Part shown: piece by piece, positions 25,831 to 37,719 of the stretch
Numbering within the stretch: position 1 is the first letter of the stretch
Layout of the letters: each line of letters starts with the position of its first letter
From: a virus
Strand: one strand, 5' to 3'
Virus record (IMG/VR): IMGVR_UViG_2974520824_000001
Span: 7,539-71,538 of that record
DNA length: 64,000 nt
Notes under the pieces: model-generated
Databases searched by the model: none
The model's input: only the letters and a program-made list of their open reading frames with translations
Told to the model about the DNA's origin: nothing
Program-made: the position numbers and the translations under genes

Positions 25831-25847
25831 TACAACTGAATCTGATT

Positions 25848-25899
25848 GCGCGGCAAGGGTTTTCGATCACTGAATTCCCTTGTCGCGCTTTCGTTTCCG
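25848..25899 (+). terminator. putative factor-independent terminator of late operon
   Basis: GCGCGGCAAGGG...CCCTTGTCGCGC 12-bp stem (one G-U) followed by TTTCGTTTCC. Confidence 0.45.
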
Positions 25900-27347
25900 T
25901 GAAAGCGGACTAGGGTCCGGTATTGTGTAGAACTTGACAGGTGTCAATTTTGAAACCCTAACTGTTGCAAAGGATTTCAAATCTGAAAAACGTTGCAGCA
26001 CAAGGCTTTTCGGCCAAAGTTAGTTAACGGCCATTCACTTTTCGGTTTGGGCACCGGACTGTAGTCCGCTTAGGCTGTAGCAAACAGATTATGTCAACCT
26101 AAACGGAACGTGCGTTCTGATCGCCTGTTTTCGCTGGTCAGCGACCTAATTTGGAGGGTGTGAGATAGGTCACACTTTCCAGCAAACTGATGTTTTCCCT
26201 GCATCTACCTGGGTTTTTGGTATAGTGGTGGTTGAAGTGTGTTTATTGAACACATGGTGATTGAAAACTACATAGCGGGTGACGAGCGAACTACTTGGAT
26301 AGTTCGATGCCACGCGAAACGCGCTCGGATTCGACAATGGAAATTTTCCTAGAATCGCAACAGTGAGCCACGCCGCCGGGTATCGATACAAAGTGTGTGT
26401 GAGTGAAAAGCCAACGATGTGGGCGGCCGGATCGAAACACGCGAACACGTATTCCAAGCAAGCGTTGCAAGTGAGCCGAGAACTCATTAGCTTACGAAGT
26501 ACCGATCAGGAGACGTGCGACAATGGCACTGATTGAATCGCGAACCGGATAGTCACCCGCTATGCAGTACAGGCCAGCACCACGGCCAGACAACTAGATA
26601 CGAGGAAACGCGAAAGTTGGCTAATACCAGCAACTTTCACGGAGTATCCGTATCGAATAGTGTACCGCTGCAAGGGTTTTCAAAGACCGGAGTTAGCGCG
26701 TAGTGTTCATCCGGCGATAACGGAGAGACAACCGGAGTCCGCATAGCGGCCCGCCGATCAGGGGACACCCTTTGACCTGAGACTACGTGTGAAATATGGC
26801 ACCCTGAGCAGCGCAATCGAATCGGTGAAAACGTTTGGTGCTGGCACGTTCTGACGATTCGATTGGTGTTCGGTAGGTTCCTACAATTGATAAGACCTGT
26901 TCAGTCAGGCCCAATCCCTAGTCCTACCAACACATTCCATCCATCCTCGGTACAGGGGTTTTCCTCTGTACCAACAGATTTCACGAACAGATAACCGCTG
27001 GTCGTGGCGTCCGTTGGTGCAGGTGGCAGGCTTAGAAATATGGCACGTCCGTATTGGTACCTGGCTGGAACGTAGAAAAGAGTGACCCCGTCTCCGCTAC
27101 TATAATAAGGCGATTTTTCAAAAGTGTCTCAGATTGGCTCTCAGGCCCGGGAATGGGCTTTTGACCAGGACTTTTGTAGGGCATCTCCCAGGACGTGACC
27201 AGGCCGGTACGCGCCAGTACCACACCAAATGGCTTCCCAGACATACGGTTTGGGATTTTGGATTGAAACCTGTTGTGCGGCAACGCATTTCGGGCAGGCA
27301 TCCAAACGAAAGACCTTGCGCTGCAAGGCAATCCGAGAGGATAGGGA

Positions 27348-27485
27348 ATGAAGTTTGCGGTCTGCACTGCTAGCGGCAACGTCCTGGCACGTTTCGGAAA
27401 CGTGACGTGGGCACGTCGTTTTGCGCGTGAGAACAAACCGTGTGTTTTGTGGAATACCAAGACAAACAAGCAACTTCGCTTCTGA
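27348..27485 (+). CDS. small hypothetical protein (45 aa), first gene carrying the conserved GAGAGGAT leader
   Basis: ATG preceded by CCGAGAGGATAGGGA; not in ORF track (<60 aa); ends 10 nt before first tRNA-like element. Confidence 0.35.
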   Translation: MKFAVCTASGNVLARFGNVTWARRFARENKPCVLWNTKTNKQLRF

Positions 27486-27495
27486 GAGCAGTAAG

Positions 27496-27539
27496 GCCCG
27501 CAACGGTTTTCAACGTAGGTTCGATTCCTACGGCGGGTA
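27496..27539 (+). ncRNA. tRNA-like top-half element U1 (acceptor stem + T-arm, no anticodon arm)
   Basis: GCCCGC-AACGGTTTTCAAC-GTAGGTTCGATTCCTAC-GCGGGT-ACG; perfect T-loop TTCGATT. Confidence 0.5.
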
Positions 27540-27568
27540 CGTTATAGCGAAACACGCTATATGAGAGG

Positions 27569-27763
27569 ATGATTCAAATGGCGTTGAATCGTGAGCAGAA
27601 GAAAATGCTCGGAGATGCGGCGTTCGGCAAGGCAATCCAATTGGTCGAATTCTTCGGTGAAGACGAGACCACGGAAGCTCTTGCCGCACAAGGCATTAAA
27701 CCCAGCGAGGCGCGAGAGCAAATCGAAATCTGGTTCTCCAAGATTCCATCGACGTACAAGTAA
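27569..27763 (+). CDS. hypothetical small protein (cassette gene 1)
   Basis: Leader TGAGAGGATGATTCAAATG; consensus alignment suggests true start at second ATG 27578. Confidence 0.45.
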   Translation: MIQMALNREQKKMLGDAAFGKAIQLVEFFGEDETTEALAAQGIKPSEAREQIEIWFSKIPSTYK

Positions 27764-27775
27764 TGAATCACGTTC

Positions 27776-27828
27776 GGGCACAACGGTTTCCGCGCTAGCG
27801 GGCGGGGGTTCGATTCCCCCGGTGCCTA
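27776..27828 (+). ncRNA. tRNA-like top-half element U2
   Basis: GGGCAC-AACGGTTTCC(GCGCTAGCGG)-GGGGGTTCGATTCCCCC-GTGCCT-ACA; extra mini-hairpin in linker. Confidence 0.5.
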
Positions 27829-27863
27829 CAATGCACCAAATCGGTTGCAGGAGAGGATGAATC

Positions 27864-28157
27864 ATGGCTGACATCAAAGCACGCAATCGAATCTGCACCA
27901 ATTGCCAGGTCGATGTGGACGTGCGCCAATGTGATTGCAACGCAAGGGTTACCACGCTGATTTCGTGGGACTGCACACGTTGCGGCACAGAGGTTGTCAC
28001 CAGCGGCGGTCACGACGTTGATTGCCGCAAATGTGGTGCTTGCTACAACGGTTCAGGCCAACGTCTCCGCGACGATTGGCGTTCCAATCCTTCGGTCTAC
28101 GATGACGAAATCGGAGATATGGAAGGGTACGAATTGCAGCACGCGAACGATTGGTGA
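27864..28157 (+). CDS. Cys-rich small protein (putative zinc-binding)
   Basis: Leader GCAGGAGAGGATGAATCATG; CTNC...CDC...CTRC...CRKCGAC motifs. Confidence 0.5.
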   Translation: MADIKARNRICTNCQVDVDVRQCDCNARVTTLISWDCTRCGTEVVTSGGHDVDCRKCGACYNGSGQRLRDDWRSNPSVYDDEIGDMEGYELQHANDW

Positions 28158-28170
28158 CGTAATCACCGGA

Positions 28171-28211
28171 GGGACAACGGTTTTCGGGTAGGTTCGATTC
28201 CTACCGTCCCA
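28171..28211 (+). ncRNA. tRNA-like top-half element U3
   Basis: GGGAC-AACGGTTTTCG-GGTAGGTTCGATTCCTACC-GTCCC-ACG; preceded by hairpin GGTGACGTAATCACC. Confidence 0.5.
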
Positions 28212-28250
28212 CGCTTCAACCAAATCGGTTGGCAGAGAGGGTGGTTCACG

Positions 28251-28490
28251 ATGTCTGATTATTCCTTTCACATCGAAGTCACTGACACGACAGTGGCTTA
28301 CGAGTGTGAGGCAGACCGGGCAGAACGTGAGGGATTCGACAACGTGGCGAAACGTCAACGTGCAATTGCTTTGCACTTGAAGAACGCATACGAACACATG
28401 CGCGACATTTGCCCCGAAGGTTACCGGGTCGAAACGAAAATCGTTGTCTCACATGTCCCTAACGTCAACCCTGTTCTGAATAGACGCTGA
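28251..28490 (+). CDS. hypothetical small protein
   Basis: Leader CAGAGAGGGTGGTTCACGATG after hairpin CCAAATCGGTTGG. Confidence 0.45.
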   Translation: MSDYSFHIEVTDTTVAYECEADRAEREGFDNVAKRQRAIALHLKNAYEHMRDICPEGYRVETKIVVSHVPNVNPVLNRR

Positions 28491-28499
28491 ATCATGGTG

Positions 28500-28541
28500 G
28501 GCCGGAACGGTATTAGGTGGGTTCAACTCCCACCCCGGCTA
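28500..28541 (+). ncRNA. tRNA-like top-half element U4
   Basis: GGCCGG-AACGGTATTAG-GTGGGTTCAACTCCCAC-CCGGCT-ACA; acceptor stem identical to U7. Confidence 0.45.
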
Positions 28542-28577
28542 CAATGCGACGAAATACGTTGCAGGAGAGGATGGTTC

Positions 28578-29357
28578 ATGATGAACGACGATCTGGCTTA
28601 CGTGGCTAAGTGCTGCTTTCATTCCTCTGACGATCACAACCCCATTGGTGGTTGGGACGCCGGTTACTGCTCTGGAAACAGTTGCGGTTGCGAGGAATTG
28701 AGCGATGAGCGCGCCACGGTGCTTGAGGTCTTGAATCATGAGTACGGAACCGCTTTGACTGCAAGCGATTTGGAATACAAAAACGACGTTCCTCGTGAAT
28801 GGTCACACATTCTCAAGCTTGGACCGTATGGTCGGAATCTCGTAATCGACTTGACCAGCGCACGCGATGTGCATGGTTACGATGACGCGCTGACGACCTC
28901 CAATTACGAAGTCCTGCAAGAGAATTGGAAAGGCTACGACGCACTATGCGACGGTGGCTACTCCAATTGCTATTCCATTGGCCTGCAATTCGATGAGGCA
29001 TCCCCCGCCGATCTGGTTTCCACGGTCAAGTCTCTGGAAGACTATCCCGCACTTGATGATTCGCGAATGAGCGAGCTTGAGTGGGAATGGATTACAGAGC
29101 AGTGGAGCGACCACGGCATTCAGGATGCTCGAATCAAGCTGTCGGAGTTGCTATCTCACGATGGCAAGACGCGGTTTGAAATCGAATTGCCTGACGGTGA
29201 TTGGTTCGATGAGATGATTCGGGCCGACATCTTCGGTGACGATTCAAACGTTCCGTACTACGAATCGGGCGGCGGCGCTGTGTATCCCATTGACGAAATC
29301 CTTTCGGACAGTGCGACACTCGCCAAGTACGGTTCAATACTGTTTGCCCTGGTCTAA
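28578..29357 (+). CDS. hypothetical acidic protein (259 aa)
   Basis: Leader GCAGGAGAGGATGGTTCATGATG; in-frame ATG 28578 chosen over upstream track start 28494, which would read through U4. Confidence 0.5.
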   Translation: MMNDDLAYVAKCCFHSSDDHNPIGGWDAGYCSGNSCGCEELSDERATVLEVLNHEYGTALTASDLEYKNDVPREWSHILKLGPYGRNLVIDLTSARDVHGYDDALTTSNYEVLQENWKGYDALCDGGYSNCYSIGLQFDEASPADLVSTVKSLEDYPALDDSRMSELEWEWITEQWSDHGIQDARIKLSELLSHDGKTRFEIELPDGDWFDEMIRADIFGDDSNVPYYESGGGAVYPIDEILSDSATLAKYGSILFALV

Positions 29358-29366
29358 AGGGCAGGA

Positions 29367-29407
29367 GCGCCAACGGTTTTCGGTGAGGTTCGATTCCTCA
29401 CGGCGCA
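29367..29407 (+). ncRNA. tRNA-like top-half element U5
   Basis: GCGCC-AACGGTTTTCG-GTGAGGTTCGATTCCTCAC-GGCGC-ACG. Confidence 0.5.
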
Positions 29408-29442
29408 CGTATCCCAAACGGGAAACAAGAGAGGATGGAACA

Positions 29443-29727
29443 GTGGCGAATACTACCTTCAAAGGTGTTGAGATTTACCGGGTTTCGCGCAACAAGGCCA
29501 GTGGTACCAACGGTAACCCACGGTTCACATTGCACACGGATCGCGGCGAAATGCACACCGGCGTAGACGCTTCCCTTGGTTACGGCATCGAAAACCTGAC
29601 CAATAAGCGGCTCCCTGAGACGTTCGTGATCGGAAACCCCGGTGTCACAGTCGATTTGGTCGGTTGTGGCAGCCGACCGGATTCCAACATCATTCACGTC
29701 ATTCGGGACGGTAAACAGCTGATGTAA
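29443..29727 (+). CDS. hypothetical small protein
   Basis: Leader CAAGAGAGGATGGAACAGTG; GTG start; track ORF 29236 would read through U5. Confidence 0.45.
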   Translation: MANTTFKGVEIYRVSRNKASGTNGNPRFTLHTDRGEMHTGVDASLGYGIENLTNKRLPETFVIGNPGVTVDLVGCGSRPDSNIIHVIRDGKQLM

Positions 29728-29735
29728 TCCAAAGA

Positions 29736-29779
29736 GGGCCAACGGTTTTCGTTGGGGTTCGATTCCCCAAGGCCCACCA
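29736..29779 (+). ncRNA. tRNA-like top-half element U6 (3' end ACCA encoded)
   Basis: GGGCC-AACGGTTTTCGT-TGGGGTTCGATTCCCCA-AGGCCC-ACCA. Confidence 0.5.
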
Positions 29780-29822
29780 TGCTCCAATTCGTTTGGTGCA
29801 GTAGTGAACAGAGGATGGAAAC

Positions 29823-30269
29823 ATGGTAAGCAAGATCATTCTGGTGAATGCGTCTACCCAACTCGATCCGATCCGCAAAGGCATTGCGCAGGCACGACAT
29901 TCGTTGCGTGTTTGCGTCGATGGTGATGCGGTCAAGTTCAAAATCGATGGCGGCACTTGGTCGCCCGGTTACGGTGGCATTGATCCAGGATCGGATTACG
30001 CCTACTACCAACGCAATTCGGAAGCTGAGAAGTGCATCGCCATTGTCTTGAATGATGATGGCACGATGGAAGATCAGTGCTACACCTGGGAAACCGCACA
30101 GACTTACGCCCAACAGGGCAAGGTGGTTCGTGCGGTCCAGGCCGATGGTCACATGAGTATTGAAGCGATTCAACGACTCTGCGACGCCGACCGCGAAAGG
30201 TATTGGGACTGTTTCGATCCCGGTGACCAGTACACCGGTCCTACTCCGAGAGAGTTTGACGACGTGTGA
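29823..30269 (+). CDS. hypothetical protein (148 aa)
   Basis: Leader ACAGAGGATGGAAACATG after hairpin CACCA...TGGTG. Confidence 0.5.
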   Translation: MVSKIILVNASTQLDPIRKGIAQARHSLRVCVDGDAVKFKIDGGTWSPGYGGIDPGSDYAYYQRNSEAEKCIAIVLNDDGTMEDQCYTWETAQTYAQQGKVVRAVQADGHMSIEAIQRLCDADRERYWDCFDPGDQYTGPTPREFDDV

Positions 30270-30475
30270 AAACCATTGATCCAAACATGAACGCGGACAA
30301 GCAATATCGCGAAGCGTTCATGTTACGCCATAGAGCAGTAGCCATCGGAGATATCGAAATGTCAAGGTACATAGACGATTTGATATGGATGATGGCCTGC
30401 TCAATCGCCGAAGGGTTGCCGCAACCCTGGTCCCAATTCTATCCAATGTTTCAAGAAGAATTTGGGATCGAATAG
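30266..30475 (+). CDS. hypothetical small protein
   Basis: 69-aa ORF overlapping upstream stop by 4 nt; no leader cassette. Confidence 0.4.
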   Translation: MKTIDPNMNADKQYREAFMLRHRAVAIGDIEMSRYIDDLIWMMACSIAEGLPQPWSQFYPMFQEEFGIE

Positions 30476-30480
30476 TGGTG

Positions 30481-30522
30481 GGCCGGAATGGTTTTCGGAG
30501 GGTTCGATTCCCTCCCCGGCTA
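30481..30522 (+). ncRNA. tRNA-like top-half element U7
   Basis: GGCCGG-AATGGTTTTCG-GAGGGTTCGATTCCCTC-CCGGCT-ACG. Confidence 0.5.
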
Positions 30523-30564
30523 CGTAATCGGTTGAACCACAACCGGATACAGAGAGGATGGAAC

Positions 30565-30966
30565 ATGACCACGACTACCCTTGAGGACCGTGCTGCCGAG
30601 CTTGGCAAGGACTACGGAAAGGCTGTTGGATCATGGGTCGTTGACGGTAACACGTCAAAAGAGCAGTGCGACAAGCTGATTGAGGGTATCGATACGTGCG
30701 ATCCCGAAGTCATGGACTTGATTCCATCGCCTCTGTCCGGCGAATTTGCCGACGGCCCAACGGTTTACAGCGTTCTAAAAGAACTTGGCCTTGATCCGGC
30801 AGTGTTCGATGAACAGTTCGATCACTTGATCGACGTTTACGAAGAAGCATTCAGCGAAAGCTGGTGTGACACAGTCTATCAGGCCGCTCATGCCAATCAT
30901 CCTGACTACGATCCGTGCTCGGTTTGTGGTCTGTATGGGCATAAGTGGAAAGAACACGTCGATTGA
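30565..30966 (+). CDS. hypothetical acidic protein
   Basis: Leader ACAGAGAGGATGGAACATG; ATG 30565 in frame with track ORF 30385. Confidence 0.5.
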   Translation: MTTTTLEDRAAELGKDYGKAVGSWVVDGNTSKEQCDKLIEGIDTCDPEVMDLIPSPLSGEFADGPTVYSVLKELGLDPAVFDEQFDHLIDVYEEAFSESWCDTVYQAAHANHPDYDPCSVCGLYGHKWKEHVD

Positions 30967-31101
30967 ATGTATCGCGAAAACCCGTACCTCCCAACGCCTT
31001 TGAGGTGGTACGAGTACGTGATACACAATGGACGAAAACACCGTGCGCTCAAGAACTTTCGCGGTTTGACCGTGATACTTGAGTGCGTGGAGTAGTGGTT
31101 A

Positions 31102-31143
31102 TCCCCGATGGTCGTAGCCGTGGTTCGACTCCACGGCGGGGAA
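31102..31143 (+). ncRNA. tRNA-like top-half element U8
   Basis: TCCCC-GATGGTCGTA-GCCGTGGTTCGACTCCACGGC-GGGGA-ACG; 7-bp T-stem. Confidence 0.45.
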
Positions 31144-31188
31144 CGAGCGCGCCAATTCCGGTGTGCCACAAAAAGAAAGAGGATGGTA

Positions 31189-31416
31189 ATGGGTATGGCT
31201 ACCGTACAGAACCGCCAATCGGCCTACGTTCGTAGGCTCCGAGTAGGCGACAAGTTCAACGAAGACGGTACTACCTGGATCGTGACCCGAGAGCCGGAAG
31301 TAATCGACGGCGCAGAGGTTGCGGTCTACCTGAAACCCCTTCCGTCACCGCCACGTTCGCGGTCGCGACGATTCTCCTACGCAATGGATGCGCGGGTTCA
31401 CATCGTCCGGTCCTAA
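31189..31416 (+). CDS. hypothetical small protein
   Basis: Leader AAAGAAAGAGGATGGTAATGGGTATG; start ambiguous between ATG 31183, 31189 and 31195. Confidence 0.4.
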   Translation: MGMATVQNRQSAYVRRLRVGDKFNEDGTTWIVTREPEVIDGAEVAVYLKPLPSPPRSRSRRFSYAMDARVHIVRS

Positions 31417-31434
31417 GTGAGTAGACGGGGGATA

Positions 31435-31498
31435 GCCCGGTTGGTACGAATTCGGTTGAAAGACACCGAATTTCGCAAGTTCAATCCTTGCGCGGGCA
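31435..31498 (+). ncRNA. tRNA-like element U9 (acceptor + long internal hairpin + T-arm; atypical)
   Basis: GCCCG...AATTCGGT-TGAAAGAC-ACCGAATT...GCAAGTTCAATCCTTGC-CGGGC-ACT; T-loop TTCAATC. Confidence 0.35.
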
Positions 31499-31565
31499 CT
31501 ATCTCAGATGCTATTCTGAGAACACCAACGAATCTCGTTGGGACACACAAAGAAAGAGGATGGAT

Positions 31566-32753
31566 ATGAGCCAGGAAACGATGGAATGGTTGAACAAGTA
31601 CATTCTGGTTGGGAACTGCAAGGCCCGACCGAATGCTTGGCACAACCGTCCTGAATTCCGCGAGGCAAATGGTTTGGAGGAAAACCACTTTCAAGACCCG
31701 ATTCCGTATCGGGTTGTGGTTGACCGGCTTTTCAACTGGAAAGCAATCAGCGCCCCGAAAGCGAATCTCATCCCGGTTCCGAAACGAGACGCCAATTGGT
31801 TTGACGCAGACGGCAATCCGTTCAAGATTGTCATGTCGTCCGAGTACGACTACAAAAAGCGTGAAATCATCGGTGGCGAACAGGGTATCGTCAAGTCAGA
31901 TACCTTGGAGCACATCGCAACTCACAGTGGCAAGTACAAAATCCACGATTACGAACAGTGGCTTTTGCAGTTGCAGTCCAACGTGATTGGCGATACGCTC
32001 TCGATTCTCGGTGCCGGTCTACTTCGCAACGGTGCGCAAGCCTACGTTCAGGTGGCACTGCCAGAAACCGTGCAGGACAACAACTCTGGTATGGAATTCG
32101 TTCCGTACATCATGGGGTCAACGTCGCTGGACGGTTCGATTCCGAGCACTTACAGCGCGGGATCGCTTCTGGTGGTTTGCGATAACACCAGAGACGGAGC
32201 GATTGCACAGGCGAACCAGTCGGGTCGCATCTACAAGGCCAAGCACACGTCGAAATCCCTTGATACGGATAGCATTAAAGACGTGCAGCAGGCGTTGGGA
32301 ATCGTCCACCAGACCGCCGAGTCCATGAAGCATGAATTTGCTGAACTGGCCGCTATCGACATGAACCGTCGGCAGACGCTGAAAGTGCTTGATATCATTC
32401 AGCCTATCCCGAAGGAAAAAGACGGTGCGACCAAGCGACAGGTTGTAATCGCGGAAAACAAGCGAGAGGGGTTGCTGCACGCAATCTTTCGCGATCCCAC
32501 AGGCGGCGCGGAATGGAAGAACACCGCGCTTGGCCTGAGCAATGGCGTCTCCACGTACTTCACTTGGAACACCAGCGTTAAGGGAAATCGCTTGGAGCGC
32601 AACGCCGAAAAGGCCATCAAGGCTGGCGTTGAGCGTCGGAAAGCGTTGGAGTTGGGCGCGATTGAATCGGGCGCAACATTCAGAGACGTTGACCGGCAAA
32701 CCATGATGGCGATTGCTCACGTCATGAATCGACCGGAGTTGGTCGGCAAGTAG
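31566..32753 (+). CDS. hypothetical protein (395 aa), largest cassette gene; possibly a DUF932-like phage/plasmid protein (unverified)
   Basis: Leader AAAGAAAGAGGATGGATATG after two hairpins; the family resemblance is a recollection only. Confidence 0.5.
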   Translation: MSQETMEWLNKYILVGNCKARPNAWHNRPEFREANGLEENHFQDPIPYRVVVDRLFNWKAISAPKANLIPVPKRDANWFDADGNPFKIVMSSEYDYKKREIIGGEQGIVKSDTLEHIATHSGKYKIHDYEQWLLQLQSNVIGDTLSILGAGLLRNGAQAYVQVALPETVQDNNSGMEFVPYIMGSTSLDGSIPSTYSAGSLLVVCDNTRDGAIAQANQSGRIYKAKHTSKSLDTDSIKDVQQALGIVHQTAESMKHEFAELAAIDMNRRQTLKVLDIIQPIPKEKDGATKRQVVIAENKREGLLHAIFRDPTGGAEWKNTALGLSNGVSTYFTWNTSVKGNRLERNAEKAIKAGVERRKALELGAIESGATFRDVDRQTMMAIAHVMNRPELVGK

Positions 32754-32759
32754 TAAGGA

Positions 32760-32805
32760 GGGTAGCTCTGGTGAGCTTAGTTCAGGTTCGATTCCTGACT
32801 ACCCA
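32760..32805 (+). ncRNA. tRNA-like element U10 (acceptor + small D-like hairpin + T-arm)
   Basis: GGGTAG-CTCTGGTGAGCTTAG-TCAGGTTCGATTCCTGA-CTACCC-ACG. Confidence 0.5.
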
Positions 32806-32847
32806 CGTAAGCCGTTGACAGTCAACGGAATACAGAGAGGATGGAAC

Positions 32848-33168
32848 GTGCGAATCCCCATGAGGACGAAGTATGTCCGCGAGGATCACGCCTTGCTGAA
32901 AAGCAATGTGTACGTTGATGGTTCAAAGATGATCCAAGTCTTTTCGGCCATCGGCGAACCGCTTCTGACGGCAACCGTGTGTCTTGAGGCATACGGTGAA
33001 AAGCCCGATGAGGGAAACGTTTTCATCAAGACGTGGTCCGAAAACGAAGGTGTCTTTGAGGCACTGCACAAGGCGGGGGTGATTGGCAACGCGGTGCGAA
33101 TGATTCCGGTCGGTGGTCATGATGCTCAAGTTGCCGAATGCCCTCTGCTCGCGAAAGGTCGTTTCTAA
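32848..33168 (+). CDS. hypothetical protein
   Basis: Leader ACAGAGAGGATGGAACGTG after perfect hairpin CCGTTGACAGTCAACGG; GTG start (alternative ATG 32860). Confidence 0.45.
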   Translation: MRIPMRTKYVREDHALLKSNVYVDGSKMIQVFSAIGEPLLTATVCLEAYGEKPDEGNVFIKTWSENEGVFEALHKAGVIGNAVRMIPVGGHDAQVAECPLLAKGRF

Positions 33169-33169
33169 C

Positions 33170-33415
33170 ATGGCATTTGAGACACGGATCAGAAATCGGA
33201 ACACGATTGAAAAGGTCAATCCTTCAACCGGTCACGTCATCGCCAAAGCTGTCAGAGCACAGCCGGGAGCGAATTGGCATGTCGGAGCAGAGATTCAGAC
33301 CGATATGGGAAAGAAGATGACCAACGTCGGAGAGATCGCGGCCCATCTTCCCGAAGTGATGCAACGAAAGCTCGCTTTGAGCTGGGTTGATTCACTGCCT
33401 TTCAATCTGTACTGA
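33170..33415 (+). CDS. hypothetical small protein
   Basis: ATG 33170 two nt after upstream TAA, in frame with track ORF 33113. Confidence 0.4.
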   Translation: MAFETRIRNRNTIEKVNPSTGHVIAKAVRAQPGANWHVGAEIQTDMGKKMTNVGEIAAHLPEVMQRKLALSWVDSLPFNLY

Positions 33416-33424
33416 ATCACGGTA

Positions 33425-33466
33425 TGCCGGAACGGTTTTCAGTGGGGTTCGATTCCCCGCCCGGCA
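33425..33466 (+). ncRNA. tRNA-like top-half element U11
   Basis: TGCCGG-AACGGTTTTCAG-TGGGGTTCGATTCCCCG-C-CCGGCA-GCA. Confidence 0.5.
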
Positions 33467-33504
33467 GCAATGCGGCGAATGACCGCAGGAAAGAGGATGG
33501 AAAC

Positions 33505-34044
33505 ATGAAATTCGTTGACCTGAGCCAGAATCCGCCCGCCGAGGTTACGGTTCTGACCTTGCGAGACATCGCGTTCAAAATCAACGGGAACGACGCATCG
33601 ACCTACTCTGGATACGCTCGTGTTTCAGTCCTCCAAAACTGGCACGACGATCCCGAAATCGAAACTCCCGCACCGGATTACACGATCAGTGAAGTTGACT
33701 ACTGGCTTCCCGAGCGTGTCTCCGAGTGGGATATGTTGTATTCCAATGAGATTCAGCGCGAAGAAGACCGAAAGGCCGAACGTCTCAAAAAGGAAAAGAT
33801 CAGCAAGTCCGATCTGATCGAAACCCTGTTGGATCAAGCCAAAGATGTGGAGCGCCGAAACTCTCGGTGCTACAACCACAATCGCGGCAACTCCATGCAG
33901 GACGGTCGGAAACGGGTTCTGGCTCTTGAAGGTGCCAAAGATTTCGTCGAGTCCATGCTTGGCGAATCATCCATGACGAAGGAGCAGCGTACCAAGTGGA
34001 ACGAATTGCTGAGCCAGGCCAAAGCTCACGTGAAAATGCAGTAA
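33505..34044 (+). CDS. hypothetical protein with charged coiled-coil-like C-terminal half
   Basis: Leader GGAAAGAGGATGGAAACATG after hairpin TGCGG..CCGCA. Confidence 0.5.
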   Translation: MKFVDLSQNPPAEVTVLTLRDIAFKINGNDASTYSGYARVSVLQNWHDDPEIETPAPDYTISEVDYWLPERVSEWDMLYSNEIQREEDRKAERLKKEKISKSDLIETLLDQAKDVERRNSRCYNHNRGNSMQDGRKRVLALEGAKDFVESMLGESSMTKEQRTKWNELLSQAKAHVKMQ

Positions 34045-34199
34045 AGGTCAAGCGTGCCAGAGCATTTGGCGTGAACCTGTTTTTCGCAACGTGTGACGAG
34101 TGCCGATGCTGGATCAAATCTGGTGTCGGCCAACACGTTTGGGAACAGAGAACACAGGCGCGTGCAGCGGCACTAGCACATCGGCACTGAATTAAGGTG

Positions 34200-34241
34200 G
34201 CCCACAGTGGTTTTCGCCAGGGTTCGATTCCCTGGGTGGGC
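34200..34241 (+). ncRNA. tRNA-like top-half element U12
   Basis: GCCCAC-AGTGGTTTTCG-CCAGGGTTCGATTCCCTGG-GTGGGC-GCG. Confidence 0.5.
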
Positions 34242-34270
34242 GCGCTGACCAAAGCGGTCACAAAGAGAGG

Positions 34271-34675
34271 ATGGAAATGAAATCGGTACGAGATTGTGCG
34301 ATCACGTTCGTCGTCGTATCCGCAATCATCGCAAGCTTTTTCGCGGTCTATATGCTGTTCGCTCCAAAGGCGAAGGCAGACGGCTACGACTTCGGTTGCG
34401 AGACAATTCATTGGGGGTTCCTCGGATCGCAACGTCGCATCATCTGTGACGGGCCGAAACGTCCCGATGGATCGTGGGAGCGCGGTCGCGTCATTCTGAC
34501 ACCTGCCCACTACGTTCCCAGAAGTTGTTATTTCGGAACGTATTCCAGCAGTTGCAGCGGCGGTTACCAAGTTGATACCACCGTGCAGGCCAGAGAGTCT
34601 TACATCGTTTTTGATTCAAACGTTCTGCCGGATGAGCCGGGATGGCTGCCGCCAGGAACGGACACTCTGCGATGA
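34271..34675 (+). CDS. secreted/membrane protein (N-terminal signal-anchor)
   Basis: Leader CAAAGAGAGGATGGAAATG; hydrophobic N-terminus ITFVVVSAIIASFFAVYMLFAPKA. Confidence 0.5.
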   Translation: MEMKSVRDCAITFVVVSAIIASFFAVYMLFAPKAKADGYDFGCETIHWGFLGSQRRIICDGPKRPDGSWERGRVILTPAHYVPRSCYFGTYSSSCSGGYQVDTTVQARESYIVFDSNVLPDEPGWLPPGTDTLR

Positions 34676-34782
34676 AAGCTCTTGCGGCCCTGTTGATTTC
34701 GACAATCGTTTTGACCGGCTGTGAAGCGCCGCGAGGAACGACCGACGAACACCCGGTTTACGCAACCTGCGTGAATCGCTGA
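34672..34782 (+). CDS. 36-aa lipoprotein precursor (micro-ORF)
   Basis: ATGA overlap with upstream stop; MKALAALLISTIVLTGC has a lipobox-like LTGC; not in ORF track. Confidence 0.4.
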   Translation: MKALAALLISTIVLTGCEAPRGTTDEHPVYATCVNR

Positions 34783-34791
34783 ATCAAGGTG

Positions 34792-34835
34792 TCCCCCAAT
34801 GGTTTTGAAAGGCAGGTTCGATTCCTGCCGGGGGA
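34792..34835 (+). ncRNA. tRNA-like top-half element U13
   Basis: TCCCCC-AATGGTTTTGAAA-GGCAGGTTCGATTCCTGCC-GGGGGA-GCG. Confidence 0.5.
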
Positions 34836-34875
34836 GCGTTACCGGCCATAGCGGTCGGAACAGAGAGAGGATGGA

Positions 34876-35082
34876 ATGTATTCTGTCACAGTTCAATTGA
34901 ACCATGTGAAGGATTCTGACGACCTGTTGCTCCAACTTGTCAGACTACAAATGGCATTCAATCAGGACGTGGACTGGCTCGCGAAGCTCGCTCAACGAAC
35001 GAATCGTGGGTGCGGTCCATTTCCGTTAGCCTACAAGGGCATTCAGCGGATCGGCACGATTGAGGTCATGCGCAATGGCTAG
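34876..35082 (+). CDS. hypothetical small protein
   Basis: Leader ACAGAGAGAGGATGGAATG. Confidence 0.4.
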   Translation: MYSVTVQLNHVKDSDDLLLQLVRLQMAFNQDVDWLAKLAQRTNRGCGPFPLAYKGIQRIGTIEVMRNG

Positions 35083-35362
35083 GCAGCAGGCGGGGAAAGC
35101 GAAATCCATTCAGGCAGAACCGAAACGAGGTCACAAGTCGAGTACCGCAGACTTGCAGGCCAAAACTCTCAGAAAGGCCCATCGTCAGGGTATGGCGTGG
35201 GATGATTACGAGGTAACGGCTCTAGTGAAAGGAATCGAAAGGGACGCAACAACTTTCGATATCGCCATGTCGATTGGTCGTAGCTACTACGCGGTCATGA
35301 CGACTCGCCGCGCTGTCGGTTTCGCCATGCGACACGCCAACGCGATTTGGGGTGACAAGTGA
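35075..35362 (+). CDS. putative small DNA-binding protein (helix-turn-helix-like)
   Basis: ATG 35075 overlapping upstream stop by 8 nt; TFDIAMSIGRSYYAVMTTRR segment looks HTH-like. Confidence 0.4.
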   Translation: MARQQAGKAKSIQAEPKRGHKSSTADLQAKTLRKAHRQGMAWDDYEVTALVKGIERDATTFDIAMSIGRSYYAVMTTRRAVGFAMRHANAIWGDK

Positions 35363-35508
35363 GAAACAAGGTCCGAAAGAAGGTTCGCGCCAAGAACGTT
35401 GAAAAGCACCGCAGGCGTTTGGAAGATCAGAGATTGATTGACTTCCACAAGACGTTGGCCGATGAGATTCGCGCCGAACGTCAACGCCAAACAGAATCCA
35501 ACAGGTAA
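35359..35508 (+). CDS. 49-aa basic Lys/Arg-rich micro-protein
   Basis: GTG in GTGA overlap with upstream stop; not in ORF track; followed by strong terminator. Confidence 0.3.
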   Translation: MRNKVRKKVRAKNVEKHRRRLEDQRLIDFHKTLADEIRAERQRQTESNR

Positions 35509-35520
35509 CCATTTCAAATG

Positions 35521-35583
35521 AAAACCCCGGTGAGGCAATCGATTTCGCGTAGAAGTCGTGCGTCTCTCCGGGGTTTTCGTCGT
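35521..35583 (+). terminator. rho-independent terminator (bidirectional-looking)
   Basis: AAAACCCCGG(TGAG)...(CTCT)CCGGGGTTTTCGTCGTT: GC stem flanked by A-tract and T-tract. Confidence 0.55.
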
Positions 35584-35681
35584 TGGGGGTGGCTGAGGTA
35601 CCGGCCATGCTATGCTCGTCAGCGAGCGTGGCGTACAGCCGGTCGCACGGCCATCTCCGCAGGTCAACGAGAGGGTCGAAA

Positions 35682-35900
35682 GTGCTTGACAGAGTACGGA
35701 TTTGGGACGGCGAGAACGGAAACGTTCATATTGAACTAAAGGATGAAGACGACGTGCCGTTTTCTCACACCGTGATTCCTCCGCATGAGTGGAAAGAGTT
35801 GCGAGACAATATGATTAAAACGTTCCCCGCCAACGTGTCGGTTTCACTGCTCACGGACTACTTAGTTGCGCTAGGTATCCATGCACTTGAAATGCGGTAA
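35682..35900 (+). CDS. hypothetical small protein
   Basis: GTG 35682 after GAGGGTCGAAA; in frame with track ORF 35583. Confidence 0.35.
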   Translation: MLDRVRIWDGENGNVHIELKDEDDVPFSHTVIPPHEWKELRDNMIKTFPANVSVSLLTDYLVALGIHALEMR

Positions 35901-35957
35901 GAGTCAATGCATTTCATTTGGGATAGAAGAAAGGAGACGACACGCCGGTACAGCTAC

Positions 35958-35986
35958 TTGAATATGTAGGCACTGTGACATACTCT
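35958..35986 (+). promoter_or_regulatory. sigma70-like promoter candidate (TTGAAT-17-TACTCT)
   Basis: -35 TTGAAT 35958-35963, 17-nt spacer, -10 TACTCT 35981-35986, upstream of gene 36042. Confidence 0.3.
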
Positions 35987-36041
35987 TAGGTGGTCTGTCG
36001 ATTCCGGCAGGCAACCTCACTGCACCAAGAGAGAGGTAGCT

Positions 36042-36794
36042 ATGGCTGCACGGCCACGGAGAAGTTCTGTCAAGGAACCATCCCAAATCGAAAAGGACGC
36101 AAGCGAATTCGGCGTCGGAGTGCGTTGTGGCGGTTGGCGGCTCGGTTTGCTTGTCGCCCGAAACGTCATGAAGGTTGGTCAAGGTACTCGCTCGGACTTG
36201 CCCACTAGTGGGCAGGTCGATGGGCAAGTAACGAAGGTGTCAGCGAACCAATTTGCCAAGCTAGCAGGGGTCAGCTCATCCACGGTTGATTACTACTACA
36301 ACGCTTGGCAATTCGCTGCGAAGGCCAGCCTCGTTCCAGACGCCGAAAAGGTGAAGCCAGGAGACGAAGACATCTGCGTTGACGCCGATGCCATCGAAGA
36401 CGAGGACAACCCTCGCACTCACTGGTCACACTTTTACGGCCTTGCGAAGAATCCTCCGAAGGAATCCAAAAAGGCTGAGAAGAAACAAGATTCAAAGCCT
36501 GAACCGGAATCTGACGAGGATGAATCAGACGCCATCGATGAAGACTTCGGCATCAGTGAGGCCGATGCGATGACGGAAGATGAACGGGCAGAAGCGGATT
36601 CGTCAATCAATCGAAACGAACTGCTCGAAATCCTAGAGAGCGCACAGGGTTTGAAGTCGCGTCTTTCTCGGATCGATTCAATCACCGGTCACGAATCTCT
36701 TGCAGCGCAGATCGCAACGGCTGCAAGCGAATTGGCCGATTTGGCTAGCGGAATGGCAGCAACGGACGAAAAGCCGCAACTCCGCGCCGTCTAG
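36042..36794 (+). CDS. putative HTH DNA-binding protein with acidic C-terminal half; contains palindrome copy 2
   Basis: GAGAGAGGTAGCTATG RBS; VSANQFAKLAGVSSSTVDYYYNAWQ looks HTH-like; Asp/Glu-rich region 36360-36600. Confidence 0.5.
   Translation: MAARPRRSSVKEPSQIEKDASEFGVGVRCGGWRLGLLVARNVMKVGQGTRSDLPTSGQVDGQVTKVSANQFAKLAGVSSSTVDYYYNAWQFAAKASLVPDAEKVKPGDEDICVDADAIEDEDNPRTHWSHFYGLAKNPPKESKKAEKKQDSKPEPESDEDESDAIDEDFGISEADAMTEDERAEADSSINRNELLEILESAQGLKSRLSRIDSITGHESLAAQIATAASELADLASGMAATDEKPQLRAV
36199..36214. repeat. 16-bp palindrome copy 2 (TGCCCACTAGTGGGCA), in CDS, encodes PTSG
   Basis: Exact palindrome. Confidence 0.8.
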
Positions 36795-36802
36795 GGGGAA
36801 TA

Positions 36803-36834
36803 GGCCAGTCTCGGGGGTCTGGCCGAAACCTTTT
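36803..36834 (+). terminator. possible terminator hairpin directly upstream of tRNA-Gln
   Basis: GGCCAGTC-TCGGGG-GTCTGGCC then GAAACCTTTT. Confidence 0.35.
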
Positions 36835-36905
36835 GCCCTGTAGTGTAATTGGCAACACTTGGGACTTTGGTTCCCACATTTCAGGTTCGAGTCCTGGCAG
36901 GGCAG
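36834..36905 (+). tRNA. tRNA-Gln (anticodon UUG)
   Basis: Full cloverleaf: acceptor TGCCCTG/CAGGGCA, D-arm GTGT-AATTGGCA-ACAC, anticodon arm TGGGA-CTTTGGT-TCCCA (U33, UUG, R37), T-arm TCAGG-TTCGAGT-CCTGG; 72 nt, no encoded CCA. Confidence 0.85.
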
Positions 36906-37062
36906 CGATCCCACGCTTTTGAAGGGAGGATAGGCAGACCCGATGGGCTGAGAACGTCCCTTGGACGTAAAACTTAACTTTTGCGCGAACACCATGTGAG
37001 GCAGTAAACCGCAATCCGGCTCTGCGGTAAGGGAAATGGATCACCCTTGAGAAACCGGCCAA

Positions 37063-37131
37063 GCCCCATGACTGGTCCCAACGCCAGCTTTAGCACCTGG
37101 CAGCGGGAGGGTTCGATTCCCTTGTGGGGCA
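37063..37131 (+). ncRNA. tRNA-like element U14 (7-bp acceptor, D-arm and T-arm present; anticodon region too short)
   Basis: GCCCCAT-GA-CTGG-TCCCAACG-CCAG-19 nt-GAGGGTTCGATTCCCTT-GTGGGGC-A-CG. Confidence 0.5.
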
Positions 37132-37158
37132 CGCTATTTCAGCAGAGAGGATGGATCG

Positions 37159-37719
37159 ATGGCGAACGCCGTTCAAAAGGCCGAATCGATTGGCAAGATG
37201 GCTACAAAGTCAGGATGGAAAGGCGGCATGGATTCCGAAGTGCGCGAAGGCATTCGGATCACAAAGCTTGAACTTGTCCGAAACGAAGACGAGTACGCCT
37301 ATTTCATCTGGCACGGCTCAAAGCTGGTCGAATCGAACTATCAGATTTTCGACGGCCCGCTCATTCCCATCGATTCCAAACGTAAACTCCTGCAATACAT
37401 TTCGGGCTGGCCTAGTCTAATTGAACTGTTCCAGACATATCCCGAATTCAATCGGCCCATGCTTGTGCAGCAATTCCGCAAGCTGCCGTTTTCATTTGAA
37501 GATGACAATGACACGATCATCGATTCCCTTATAAACAAACAGCTTTGGTGGTACGAACATGAAGGTGCCACAATTCGTTACGATCAATCAAAACTCAAGC
37601 GCAACAGCAAGTTTCGCATCGTAGACATTGGGCACCGTAAGCTCTTTCACGCCGACTGCGAGCAGGCCGGTCTTCGATCATTTCATTTGGATACCTTGCT
37701 TGAGGTCCGTGAAAGATGA
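37159..37719 (+). CDS. hypothetical protein (186 aa)
   Basis: Leader GCAGAGAGGATGGATCGATG immediately after U14. Confidence 0.5.
   Translation: MANAVQKAESIGKMATKSGWKGGMDSEVREGIRITKLELVRNEDEYAYFIWHGSKLVESNYQIFDGPLIPIDSKRKLLQYISGWPSLIELFQTYPEFNRPMLVQQFRKLPFSFEDDNDTIIDSLINKQLWWYEHEGATIRYDQSKLKRNSKFRIVDIGHRKLFHADCEQAGLRSFHLDTLLEVRER

Follow-up and report, generated by a model that had tools for sequence, protein, structure and literature searches.

The 64,000-nt stretch of viral DNA analyzed here (the window; positions 7,539 to 71,538 of IMG/VR record IMGVR_UViG_2974520824_000001) contains 14 intergenic tRNA-like elements, U1 to U14, which lie within 27.49-37.13 kb and are all co-oriented with the genes. 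From their sequence they are best described as the top half of a tRNA or of a transfer-messenger RNA (tmRNA), in which an acceptor stem and a T arm are joined by a stemless analogue of the D loop. Their arrangement suggests that they are tRNA/tmRNA-like mimics serving as cis-acting cut sites for RNase P and RNase Z in an early polycistronic mRNA, a reading to which we give a probability of about one half. Over the 10 kb region the identity to Mycobacterium phage Indlulamithi (NC_048824.1; 71,538 bp; host Mycobacterium smegmatis) is 100%, and window positions equal NC_048824.1 record positions minus 7538. From record position 32452 onward all Indlulamithi genes are on the + strand, and the record annotates the region as small hypothetical genes and one tRNA-Gln, with no feature at the elements. 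A preliminary description of this DNA, which implied that the elements are restricted to one phage, was wrong on that point: the family is widespread among phages and includes arrays in Cuke, Fowlmouth, MrMiyagi, and Send513.

The 14-element array is real and non-random, and its statistical support is overwhelming. The motif GGTTCGAYTCC occurs 13 times in the window, always on the + strand, against 0.13 matches expected by chance. Twelve of these matches are intergenic elements, and the elements without the exact motif are U4 (GGTTCAACTCC) and U9 (loop TTCAATC). The thirteenth match (32133-32143), an exact GGTTCGATTCC within the gp50 coding sequence and the sole extra copy in the 64 kb, has a stem of only 3 bp and was rejected as an element, being probably due to chance. 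A detector was applied to both strands of the 64 kb; it required the T loop TTCRANN on a stem of 4 bp or more, with the 3' acceptor strand adjoining that stem and pairing with a 5' strand located 6-59 nt upstream. It returned 12 short-linker minihelices, the tRNA-Gln, and U14, all on the + strand, and no further minihelix on either strand of that length, while U9 was also detected once the last T-loop base was relaxed. The covariance model R1, built from 57 elements of many phages and run on both strands with filters off, gave 11 matches of 34-62 bits within 27494-34837 on the + strand (U1-U8 and U11-U13) and nothing else in the window above 17 bits; in U9, U10, and U14 it aligns the T arm only, because their linkers are long. 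Weak model matches at 50998-51039, in coding sequence, and at 25847-25889 have no T loop and were discarded. The sole genuine tRNA called in the window by ARAGORN and Rfam (RF00005) is the tRNA-Gln at 36834-36905. Motif count, detector, and covariance model thus bear out the preliminary description in its count of 14 elements in 9.7 kb, as the gene callers do in its expectation that tRNA gene finding should call only 36834-36905. At gathering threshold Rfam 15 places no family at the element positions, the tRNA-Gln being its only match in the window, and has no match on 15 other element-bearing loci; at E values up to 10 the window yields only sub-threshold tmRNA, mascRNA, and Plastid-ycf2 matches.

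The standard design consists of an acceptor stem of 5-6 bp, a linker of 10-13 nt, a T stem of 6 bp with a 7-nt loop that is mostly TTCGATT, and the abutting 3' acceptor strand. Eleven of the 14 elements are short (5-6 bp acceptor stem, 10-13 nt NNNGG linker), U9, U10, and U14 are long-linkered, and U2 has an inserted hairpin. Acceptor and T stem together stack to 11 bp in 33 of 63 elements, 12 bp in 27, and 13 bp in three, split as 5-6 plus 6 bp; U14 alone is 7 plus 5. In tRNA the coaxial stack is 12 bp, with 7 bp from the acceptor and 5 bp from the T stem. The stem of 5-7 bp given earlier is thereby narrowed to an acceptor stem of usually 5-6 bp, a T stem of usually 6 bp, and a stack of 11-12 bp, and a closing G-U pair, said to be frequent, is found in only four of the 14 elements. 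Where the bases flanking the helix are unpaired in the 5-bp class, 18 of the 22 cases have A facing A. Behind the helix, 38 of 63 elements have the trailer ACG and most have RCN; the AC(G/A/C) trailer first proposed does not extend to U11-U13, which end in GCN. The linker follows the pattern NNNGG and then about six bases, and 48 of 63 elements have the GG at offset 3. This GG and the residues G53, T54, T55, C56, A58, and C61 do not vary in the 57-sequence alignment, the invariance of the T-loop residues being partly a consequence of the T-loop regular expression used to find the elements; all 49 elements compared have GC at the G53-C61 pair. This set corresponds to the residues that build the tRNA elbow, and by analogy the linker GG could dock on the T loop as G18-G19 do in tRNA. 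Linker type also tracks T-loop base 59 (T59 with GGTTTT in 28 of 35, G59 with GGCA in 5 of 6), which could reflect a tertiary contact or merely subfamilies. In the long variants (U2, U9, U14, and several elements of Cuke, Fowlmouth, and the uncultured contig L038) an extra hairpin follows the GG segment, at the location of the anticodon arm of tRNA or of helix P2 of tmRNA. The internal hairpins described earlier for U9 and U10 are confirmed, and U2 and U14 carry one too. The 10-13 nt linkers have no space for an anticodon arm, and their elements do not form the cloverleaf of a canonical tRNA; nor could an intron, the alternative raised before, restore such an arm in a linker of this length. 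The original view of the elements as tRNA top halves, acceptor plus T arm without an anticodon arm, is supported and is sharpened by the GG at fixed offset.

Sequence comparison indicates that the stems are maintained by compensatory change. In the 57-sequence MAFFT alignment 94.8% of cells are paired, compared to 55.5% in shuffles, a result that is partly circular since the seed was chosen by pairing. A less circular test on 52 covariance model matches (49 distinct; seven sources) gave 96.0% paired, against 56% when shuffled and 39-51% with the partner slid. Double-change cells in the 49 distinct elements number 223 versus 70, and both-side changes occur at 11 of 12 pairs. In a non-circular test, with a pattern comprising linker and T loop only, acceptor pairing of 5-7 bp was present in 74 of 130 viral-contig matches and in 6 of 120 matches in bacterial genomes, among the matches listed. 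The acceptor stem GCGCC, as in U5, is combined with the T stems GTGAGG, TGATGG, TAGAGG, and TAGTGG in Indlulamithi, Cuke, Fowlmouth, and the uncultured contig L029, each of them complemented, and MrMiyagi too has an element with a U5-type acceptor stem and a compensated T stem. A lack of covariation in the stems, which would have told against the preliminary description, was not observed: they are 96% paired with compensatory changes. Among non-Watson-Crick cells, 13 are G-U or U-G and one is C-A; this excess, obtained with a model that itself favours G-U somewhat, points to pairing in + strand RNA and not in DNA.

The elements are part of a larger cassette. In all 13 gaps between translation units the order is stop codon, minihelix, RCN, hairpin, AGAGAGGATGGAA (extended Shine-Dalgarno), and start codon. 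An element is present at 13 of 13 non-overlapping gene junctions within 27485-34876, and none is found at the overlapping gene pairs gp46/47, 51/52, 53/54, 55/56, and 57/58/59. The stop codon precedes the element by 5-13 nt in 11 of the 13 units and by 18 nt at U9; U8 is about 135 nt from the annotated stop and 6 nt from the stop of an unannotated open reading frame (ORF) of 42 amino acids (30967-31095, in the 222-nt gap between gp48 and gp49). If this ORF is real, U8 obeys the rule of a stop codon and then an element. The earlier statement that each element directly follows a stop codon fails for U14, which follows tRNA-Gln. From the element it is 25-37 nt to AGGATG and 35-47 nt to the start codon. 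A second hairpin, in agreement with the small hairpin first reported for each element, follows the acceptor 3' end at a distance of no more than a few nt in all 13 of the units U1-U13 and is missing only at U14; it has a stem of 4-8 bp, a loop of mostly 5 nt, z-scores of +0.1 to -3.7, and a constant position. An A-rich spacer comes next, and then AGAGAGGATGGAA, which ends 3-7 nt before the start codon. We read AGAGAGGATGGAA/AGAGAGGAUGG as an extended Shine-Dalgarno sequence complementary to the mycobacterial 16S rRNA 3' end, which we take to be ...CCUCCUUUCU-3' and to pair with AGAGAGGA. The first gene, gp40, has the hairpin and the start motif but no minihelix: hairpin GACCTTGCGCTGCAAGG and then GAGAGGATAGGGA occupy 27313-27347 on the + strand and adjoin the gp40 start at 27348, with a AGAGGATAG match at 27336.

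The coordinates of the individual cassettes, all on the + strand, are as follows, with covariance model scores in brackets; every element was returned by the detector, U9 in its relaxed-loop form. U1 at 27496-27538 (54.6 bits) reads GCCCGC / aacggttttcaa / CGTAGG-ttcgatt-CCTACG / GCGGGT, then ACG, and is followed by hairpin 2 at 27543-27561, AGGATG at 27566, and the gp41 start at 27578. U2 at 27776-27827 (34.1 bits), whose 21-nt linker holds the small hairpin CCGC-GCTA-GCGG, precedes hairpin 2 at 27832-27849 and gp42 at 27864, while U3 at 28171-28210 (58.5 bits; GGGAC / aacggttttcg / GGTAGG...CCTACC / GTCCC, then ACG) precedes hairpin 2 at 28216-28232 and gp43 at 28251. U4 at 28500-28540 (50.5 bits) has the T loop TTCAACT and the linker aacggtatta, with hairpin 2 at 28545-28563 and gp44 at 28581. 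U5 at 29367-29406 (61.7 bits; GCGCC...GGCGC, then ACG) leads through hairpin 2 at 29409-29426 to gp45 at 29443, and U6 at 29736-29775 (60.7 bits; GGGCC...GGCCC, then an encoded ACCA) through 29780-29800 to gp46 at 29823. The next two are U7 at 30481-30521 (59.2 bits; GGCCGG / aatggttttc / GGAGGG...CCCTCC / CCGGCT, then ACG), with hairpin 2 at 30524-30550 and gp48 at 30565, and U8 at 31102-31142 (44.1 bits; linker gatggtcgta(g), T loop TTCGACT), with hairpin 2 at 31147-31166 and gp49 at 31189. The long variant U9 at 31435-31497 consists of GCCCG / gttggtac / a 9-bp arm with an 8-nt loop / CGCAAG-ttcaatc-CTTGCG / CGGGC, then ACT, and has two hairpins, at 31502-31521 and 31525-31541, before gp50 at 31566. 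U10 at 32760-32804 carries a D-arm-like hairpin in its linker (GGGTAG / ctctggtgagcttagt / TCAGG-ttcgatt-CCTGA / CTACCC, then ACG), with hairpin 2 at 32807-32833 and gp51 at 32848. U11 at 33425-33466 (59.3 bits; TGCCGG...CCGGCA, then GCA) is followed by hairpin 2 at 33471-33487, AGGATG at 33494, and the likely true gp53 start, ATG 33505. U12 at 34200-34241 (57.3 bits; GCCCAC...GTGGGC, then GCG) has hairpin 2 at 34246-34260 and gp55 at 34277, and U13 at 34792-34835 (47.2 bits; TCCCCC / aatggttttgaaa / GGCAGG...CCTGCC / GGGGGA, then GCG) has hairpin 2 at 34838-34861 and gp57 at 34876. The tRNA-Gln (UUG) at 36834-36905 (Rfam 57.5 bits), with a 3' trailer GCG, is intergenic like the minihelices. 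The last element, U14 at 37063-37130, is tRNA-sized, with a 7-bp acceptor stem (one U-G), the linker gaCTGGtcccaac without a D stem, a 5-bp arm with a 9-nt loop at the position of the anticodon arm, and the T arm GAGGG-ttcgatt-CCCTT, then ACG; AGGATG stands at 37148 and gp63 starts at 37159. U14 is not called by ARAGORN, and the Rfam tRNA-Sec model gives it only 18.6 bits at relaxed threshold.

The same layout is conserved in other phages. Cuke, Fowlmouth, and MrMiyagi carry stop, leader, minihelix, ACG, hairpin, AACAGAAAAGGATGGAA, and ATG in the gaps of the equivalent block, with 10-13 covariance model matches each plus variants, and Send513 has 13 matches at E <0.001. By BLAST, the element is also found in nine further M. 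smegmatis phages of about 71 kb (Papyrus, Weiss13, Zenon, Nilo, Rope, Riparian, Candle, MontyDev, and JIND1), which together with Send513 presumably belong to Cluster R. These array phages have in common an order in which lysis genes are followed by a non-coding stretch, then by the small-gene array, and then by a helicase, and the pattern of elements in gaps and none at overlaps also holds across the Cuke and Send513 arrays. U8 orthologues with the common T stem CCGTGG stand upstream of gp49 orthologues in Cuke, Fowlmouth, and MrMiyagi, the U9 slot in Cuke likewise holds a long-arm element, and GGGTA-type elements with the U10 acceptor stem occur in Cuke, Fowlmouth, MrMiyagi, and L038. The tRNA-Gln occupies the equivalent intergenic slot in all four phages (Indlulamithi, Cuke, Fowlmouth, and MrMiyagi), and genuine tRNAs have trailers of the minihelix type, namely ...A-GCG in tRNA-Gln and ...T-ACG in Cuke tRNA-Lys. 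Further arrays are present in the uncultured contigs L029, L038/L074, and L076, the last with another start motif, GGAAAGGGGAT. One or two copies were found in a Mycobacterium abscessus prophage and in at least 57 IMG/VR loci with a GC content of 33-67% and 44 distinct core sequences; in these contigs the element typically starts 0-14 nt past a same-strand stop and ends 16-40 nt before the next start. In other contigs the elements are mostly far from any ARAGORN tRNA, so that they are not satellites of tRNA clusters, and a constant partner gene was rejected as well, the flanking accessory genes in 10 other contigs encoding unrelated proteins (PHROGs of unknown function, a methyltransferase, an anti-repressor). 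In bacterial genomes, matches to GGTTTTC-N(2-10)-GGTTCGATTCC are mostly tmRNA 3' ends composed of GGUUUUCGGAC, the T arm, and ACCA, among the matches listed. Adjoining the T arm on its 5' side, many tmRNA genes have GGTTTTCGGAC, which is identical to the phage linker consensus GGTTTTCG; most of these genes are in contigs labelled Clostridia, Oscillospiraceae, or Eubacteriales (L123-L242). The bacterial contigs L127, L182, and L190 carry true minihelices and may be prophages. SPO1-like Bacillus phages (e.g. NC_011421.1 27728-27746) have unannotated 19-nt perfect T-arm matches where no tRNA is annotated, which may be other tRNA-like elements.

The proposed cleavage presupposes that the gaps are transcribed together. 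Consensus scans of the array found 4 promoter-like sites against 7.8 expected from shuffles and 7 terminator-like sites against 15.1, none of them at an element; promoters or terminators for each gene were therefore rejected, and it is plausible that the minihelix block forms one early transcription unit of about 8 kb. After gp59, a long G+C-rich hairpin between an A run and a T run (AAAACCCCGG...CCGGGGTTTT; 35521-35580, no strand assigned) looks like a terminator that closes the minihelix-punctuated block; its equivalent is at the same place in Cuke (gap gp64|65), and the consensus scan places a minus-strand terminator-like site at 35536-35524 within it. No phage-encoded RNA-processing enzyme is annotated in record positions 32452-71538. 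In the processing model all gaps would belong to one long early transcript, in which the 5' border of each helix would be cleaved by RNase P and the RCN trailer, behind its first unpaired purine, by RNase Z or another enzyme of equivalent 3' activity. This would divide the early RNA so that one to three genes with coupled translation make up a unit. Each downstream mRNA would have only a few unpaired nt ahead of the small hairpin, which could protect the new 5' end, strong initiation would follow at the extended Shine-Dalgarno AGAGAGGAUGG and the start codon, and the 40-45 nt minihelix would be released as a by-product. Single-unit transcription, cleavage, the identity of the nucleases, and the stabilizing role of the hairpin are predicted here from sequence. 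The preliminary description had listed three possible roles, processing, decoys, and recombination boundaries, without a choice between them; with one element per gap, a tRNA-type trailer, and the placement of the hairpin, punctuation by RNase P and RNase Z appears to fit the anatomy best. Since tRNA-Gln lies in the equivalent slot in four phages, excision of a tRNA from an mRNA context would already occur there.

Several observations weigh against cleavage by these enzymes. The position just 5' of the helix is taken by A (44) or G (17) and in no case by U; Escherichia coli RNase P prefers U at -1. The acceptor stems have 5-6 bp instead of 7, and the register of the ACG trailer is fixed to the end of the helix and not to the T loop. 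Cleavage by RNase P would leave the 3' end of the upstream mRNA unprotected. The single-operon assumption has negative consensus scans as its only basis, and mycobacterial promoters are often without a -35 box. In Cuke, two cassettes (L120 6336-6414 and 7583-7681) have two hairpins without a canonical T loop, one with a plain 11 bp hairpin, a GAAA loop, and then AC, the other with the loop TGCGAGT and a GG-less linker; the plain-hairpin cassette is 90% conserved among Cuke-group phages. The tRNA-like elbow is therefore not indispensable at every site. Finally, the single copies in unrelated phages cannot be array punctuation and may hint at a function of the excised RNA.

The alternative that survives best takes up this last point and regards the excised 40-45 nt minihelices as trans-acting small RNAs, decoys or inhibitors whose dosage is raised by the array; candidate targets are MenT/AbiEii nucleotidyltransferases, CapRel/toxSAS, SmpB, the CCA-adding enzyme, and T-loop modification enzymes. 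It would account for single and double copies in many unrelated phage contigs, where array punctuation cannot apply, for the phage enrichment of minihelix pairing (the 74 of 130 viral against 6 of 120 bacterial matches, among those listed), and for a conservation of T loop and GG that is stricter than cleavage alone might call for. There is also a resemblance of linker and T arm to the tRNA-like domain of tmRNA, as seen in the Rfam tmRNA match of U2 and in tmRNA 3' ends that share GGUUUUCGGAC plus T arm, and MenT toxins that inactivate tRNA acceptor stems are on record in M. tuberculosis (PMC7450476). We nevertheless give a trans-acting role a low, though not negligible, probability: one copy per gap and none at gene overlaps suits a cis role better than dosage, stem sequences differ freely among copies, an encoded ACCA is present in U6 only, and some cassettes are without a T loop. 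There is no G3-U70 pair, so tmRNA-like alanylation is unlikely, and no partner protein is encoded nearby, the flanking genes being unrelated across phages. Equally unlikely in our view is the broader proposal of an unnamed widespread family of acceptor-end/tmRNA mimics that act in trans as RNA counter-defence (MenT/AbiEii, CapRel/toxSAS, SmpB), are amplified to 10-14 copies, and double as gene-exchange joints. The processing and decoy models are compatible, because excision is required for both.

A less likely explanation is that of a generic structural barrier, in which the elements would stabilize 3' ends, terminate or attenuate transcription without a factor, or keep Rho from loading in the 90-nt gaps, with no part for tRNA enzymes. 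Stable G+C-rich helices directly after stop codons would serve such a purpose, as would the plain hairpin or non-T loop that two Cuke cassettes have in the same slot. However, no element is followed by a T run, the ACG trailer and the second hairpin come instead, and the terminator scan finds none at the elements. An ordinary hairpin needs neither the invariant GG, G53, T54, T55, C56, A58, and C61 nor a fixed stack of 11-12 bp, and the elbow residues are kept across phages of GC 33 to 67%.

The preliminary description had also proposed that the elements are recombination boundaries, and for this the comparison of genomes gives direct support. Homologous array proteins show 36-75% identity between Indlulamithi and the Cuke group and are in part syntenic, and about ten Indlulamithi array genes have no counterpart in the Cuke group. 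The sole megablast match of the Indlulamithi 10 kb to Cuke is the 74-nt U3 module (leader, minihelix, hairpin; 90.8%), which lies upstream of the gp42 orthologue in Cuke and downstream in Indlulamithi, in a non-orthologous slot. Between Cuke, Fowlmouth, and MrMiyagi, homology blocks set in at element position -1, +19, or +33 and break off at +87 to +92, a short distance ahead of the following start codon; of the 24 ends of collinear blocks of at least 200 nt, 14 fall inside cassettes, which cover 16-20% of the region (binomial p ~4e-5, calculated on ends that are not independent). Non-homologous genes occupy equivalent slots between conserved cassettes. From breakpoints and slots it follows that the cassettes are islands of conservation flanking replaceable genes, and the breakpoint data link a structured RNA element directly to phage mosaicism. 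As the primary function, with cassettes supplying homology for swaps of early genes between co-infecting phages, recombination is nevertheless doubtful and stands below the structural barrier, even with the block ends, the moved U3 module, and the exchanged genes in its favour. Any conserved intergenic sequence between diverging genes yields the same breakpoints, which may be a by-product. Moreover, recombination needs identity and not compensated pairs, whereas these stems vary yet stay paired and tRNA-specific residues are conserved, and the single-copy elements of other phages cannot shuffle cassettes. In the processing model, gene exchange is a side effect: the cassettes also act as joints because they are the only conserved sequence between fast-diverging early genes.

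Binding of a phage or host protein to the elements as DNA sites, as proposed for the extended start-associated sequences of Cluster K (PMC3203893), would suit a repeated, oriented, intergenic element beside a start-associated motif, but it is very improbable: the sequence is free to vary while pairing is kept, the opposite of the Cluster K inverted repeats, G-U outnumbers C-A by 13 to 1, and the conserved residues are the tRNA tertiary-structure set. Decaying tRNA pseudogenes, or tRNA or tmRNA fragments left by integration events, are scarcely credible despite the tRNA-like T arm and acceptor stem and the tRNA-sized U14 adjoining tRNA-Gln where Cuke has tRNA-Lys, since both acceptor strands are present and compensated, one design is kept across several phage genera and uncultured contigs, no intron could restore the anticodon arm, and the linker consensus common to the copies indicates duplication of one design instead of 14 separate decays. 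U14 is not a decayed orthologue of the Cuke tRNA-Lys, as the sequences are unrelated.

Some features around the array deserve mention. Between gp39 and the array, 1.5 kb (25831-27347) are without an annotated gene; this stretch holds four copies of a 16-mer like CGCGGCAAGGGTTTTC (25849, 26666, 26948, 27276), several long-range inverted repeats, and a TATAAT at ~27103, and is probably an early regulatory or promoter region. A similar gap is found in Cuke, Fowlmouth, MrMiyagi, and Send513. Downstream of the block, the gap upstream of gp61 (35901-36041) includes a degenerate string similar to a T loop, GTCGATTCCGGC, as well as AGAGAGAGGTAGCT ahead of the ATG, and may be a decayed cassette; it also has TTGAAT-17 nt-TACTCT, a candidate promoter. 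A hairpin GGCCAGTCTCGGGGGTCTGGCC (~36805-36826) lies just upstream of tRNA-Gln, and about 155 nt of sequence between tRNA-Gln and U14 are unexplained, with only a chance-level Twister-P5 match by Rfam in that area (36795-37062). Many elements are preceded by the leader TGA-ATCATGG or TGA-ATCACGG (28491-28500, 33416-33425, 34783-34792, and leaders in Cuke and Fowlmouth), which resembles the Cuke motif-plus-start string GGAATCATGG downstream of the elements; the two look like a direct repeat on either side of the minihelix-hairpin module and could be left over from insertion or unequal recombination. Annotated start codons fall inside minihelices in Indlulamithi gp53 (GTG 33442 within U11, where AGGATGG points to the ATG at 33505), in Cuke gp43, gp44, and gp52 (L120 8430, 8662, and 12065), and in Fowlmouth gp56 (L121 11449).

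The GenBank records of these phages have no feature at the elements save ORFs whose called starts overlap them, and no description of the elements or of these phages' intergenic repeats was found in full-text searches of the literature. The unannotated family causes wrong start-codon calls in several GenBank records, and a named covariance model would improve phage annotation broadly, because the family occurs in many uncultured contigs, with hosts of very different GC. If the processing model is true, it would explain how dozens of small early genes of unknown function are expressed from one transcript in a group of mycobacteriophages of about 70 kb, and the combination of minihelix, hairpin, and Shine-Dalgarno would be a compact, portable part for multi-gene constructs in mycobacteria.

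Among known systems, the start-associated sequence of Cluster K is an oriented motif, GGGATAGGAGCCC, located 3-7 bp upstream of non-structural gene starts, which overlaps the Shine-Dalgarno and often has an upstream inverted repeat; departures in these repeats do not support pairing, and they were proposed to be DNA-binding sites (PMC3203893). Both systems have a conserved oriented motif a few nt before start codons, but the motifs differ (AGAGAGGATGGAA vs GGGATAGGAGCCC) and Cluster K has no T-loop element. The 13-mer GGGATAGGAGCCC has zero matches in the window at up to 2 mismatches, its place being taken by the different conserved motif AGAGGATGG, and the comparison drawn in the preliminary description holds by analogy only. 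In the P1/P7 C4 RNA precursor, the P4 CI RNA, and the phi80 M3 RNA, ends are made by host RNase P on a helix resembling the acceptor/T stack; unlike the present elements, these are single regulatory RNAs, without a repeated intergenic family and without a canonical T loop. The closest phage analogue known to us is T7, where RNase III sites between the early genes of a polycistronic transcript give rise to discrete mRNAs with structured ends; there, the sites are long irregular double-stranded hairpins, whereas here they are 11-12 bp tRNA-like stacks with a T loop. In mascRNA and MEN-beta (MALAT1), a long transcript contains a tRNA-like fold at which RNase P and RNase Z cut; this defines the end of the upstream RNA and frees a small tRNA-like RNA. 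The mascRNA-menRNA family (RF01684) matches U2, U5, and U12 weakly, at 20.2-23 bits with a gathering score of 42.5; it is eukaryotic, has a cloverleaf with an anticodon-like arm, and is not homologous.

The likeness to the tRNA-like domain of tmRNA extends to the acceptor stem, an unpaired D-loop analogue with GG, the T arm, and the lack of an anticodon arm, and many bacterial tmRNA 3' ends are GGUUUUCGGAC plus T arm, like the phage linker. U2, which looks like a reduced version of that domain, matches the Rfam tmRNA model RF00023 at 25.6 bits (E 3e-7; gathering score 47), with the 318-nt body skipped and the whole tRNA-like domain aligned, while on the remaining elements RF00023 aligns the T arm only. 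The phage elements differ in having no G3-U70 (the third pair from the helix end is CG in 39, GC in 8, and UA in 1, with no G-U), no mRNA-like ORF, no pseudoknots, no encoded CCA save the ACCA of U6, and 14 copies within an operon. Membership of the tmRNA family was rejected, as RF00023 stays below its gathering score, the halves are joined by 10-21 nt, and ARAGORN finds no tmRNA; the likeness still suggests that the elements may be connected with trans-translation or with defences aimed at the tRNA acceptor end.

By analogy, the closest precedent for the processing model seems to be the t-elements of plant mitochondria, which have a GGTTCRANYCC T arm, for which cuts by RNase P and RNase Z forming mRNA 3' and 5' ends have been shown or proposed, and which upon excision receive non-templated C/A (PMC1920247). 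Both are tRNA-like without a working cloverleaf, combine a T arm GGTTCRANYCC with an acceptor stem, and lie in longer transcripts next to ORF ends, transcription being assumed in the phage. The phage elements differ in belonging to a double-stranded DNA virus of bacteria, in their uniform size of 40-45 nt without D stem or anticodon arm, in their presence at every gene junction coupled to a fixed module of hairpin and Shine-Dalgarno, and in forming one sequence family over many phages, with cleavage that is predicted here. If RNase P and RNase Z cut the elements, they would be an example in a bacterial virus of tRNA punctuation, which has so far been associated with mitochondria and a few eukaryotic long non-coding RNAs.

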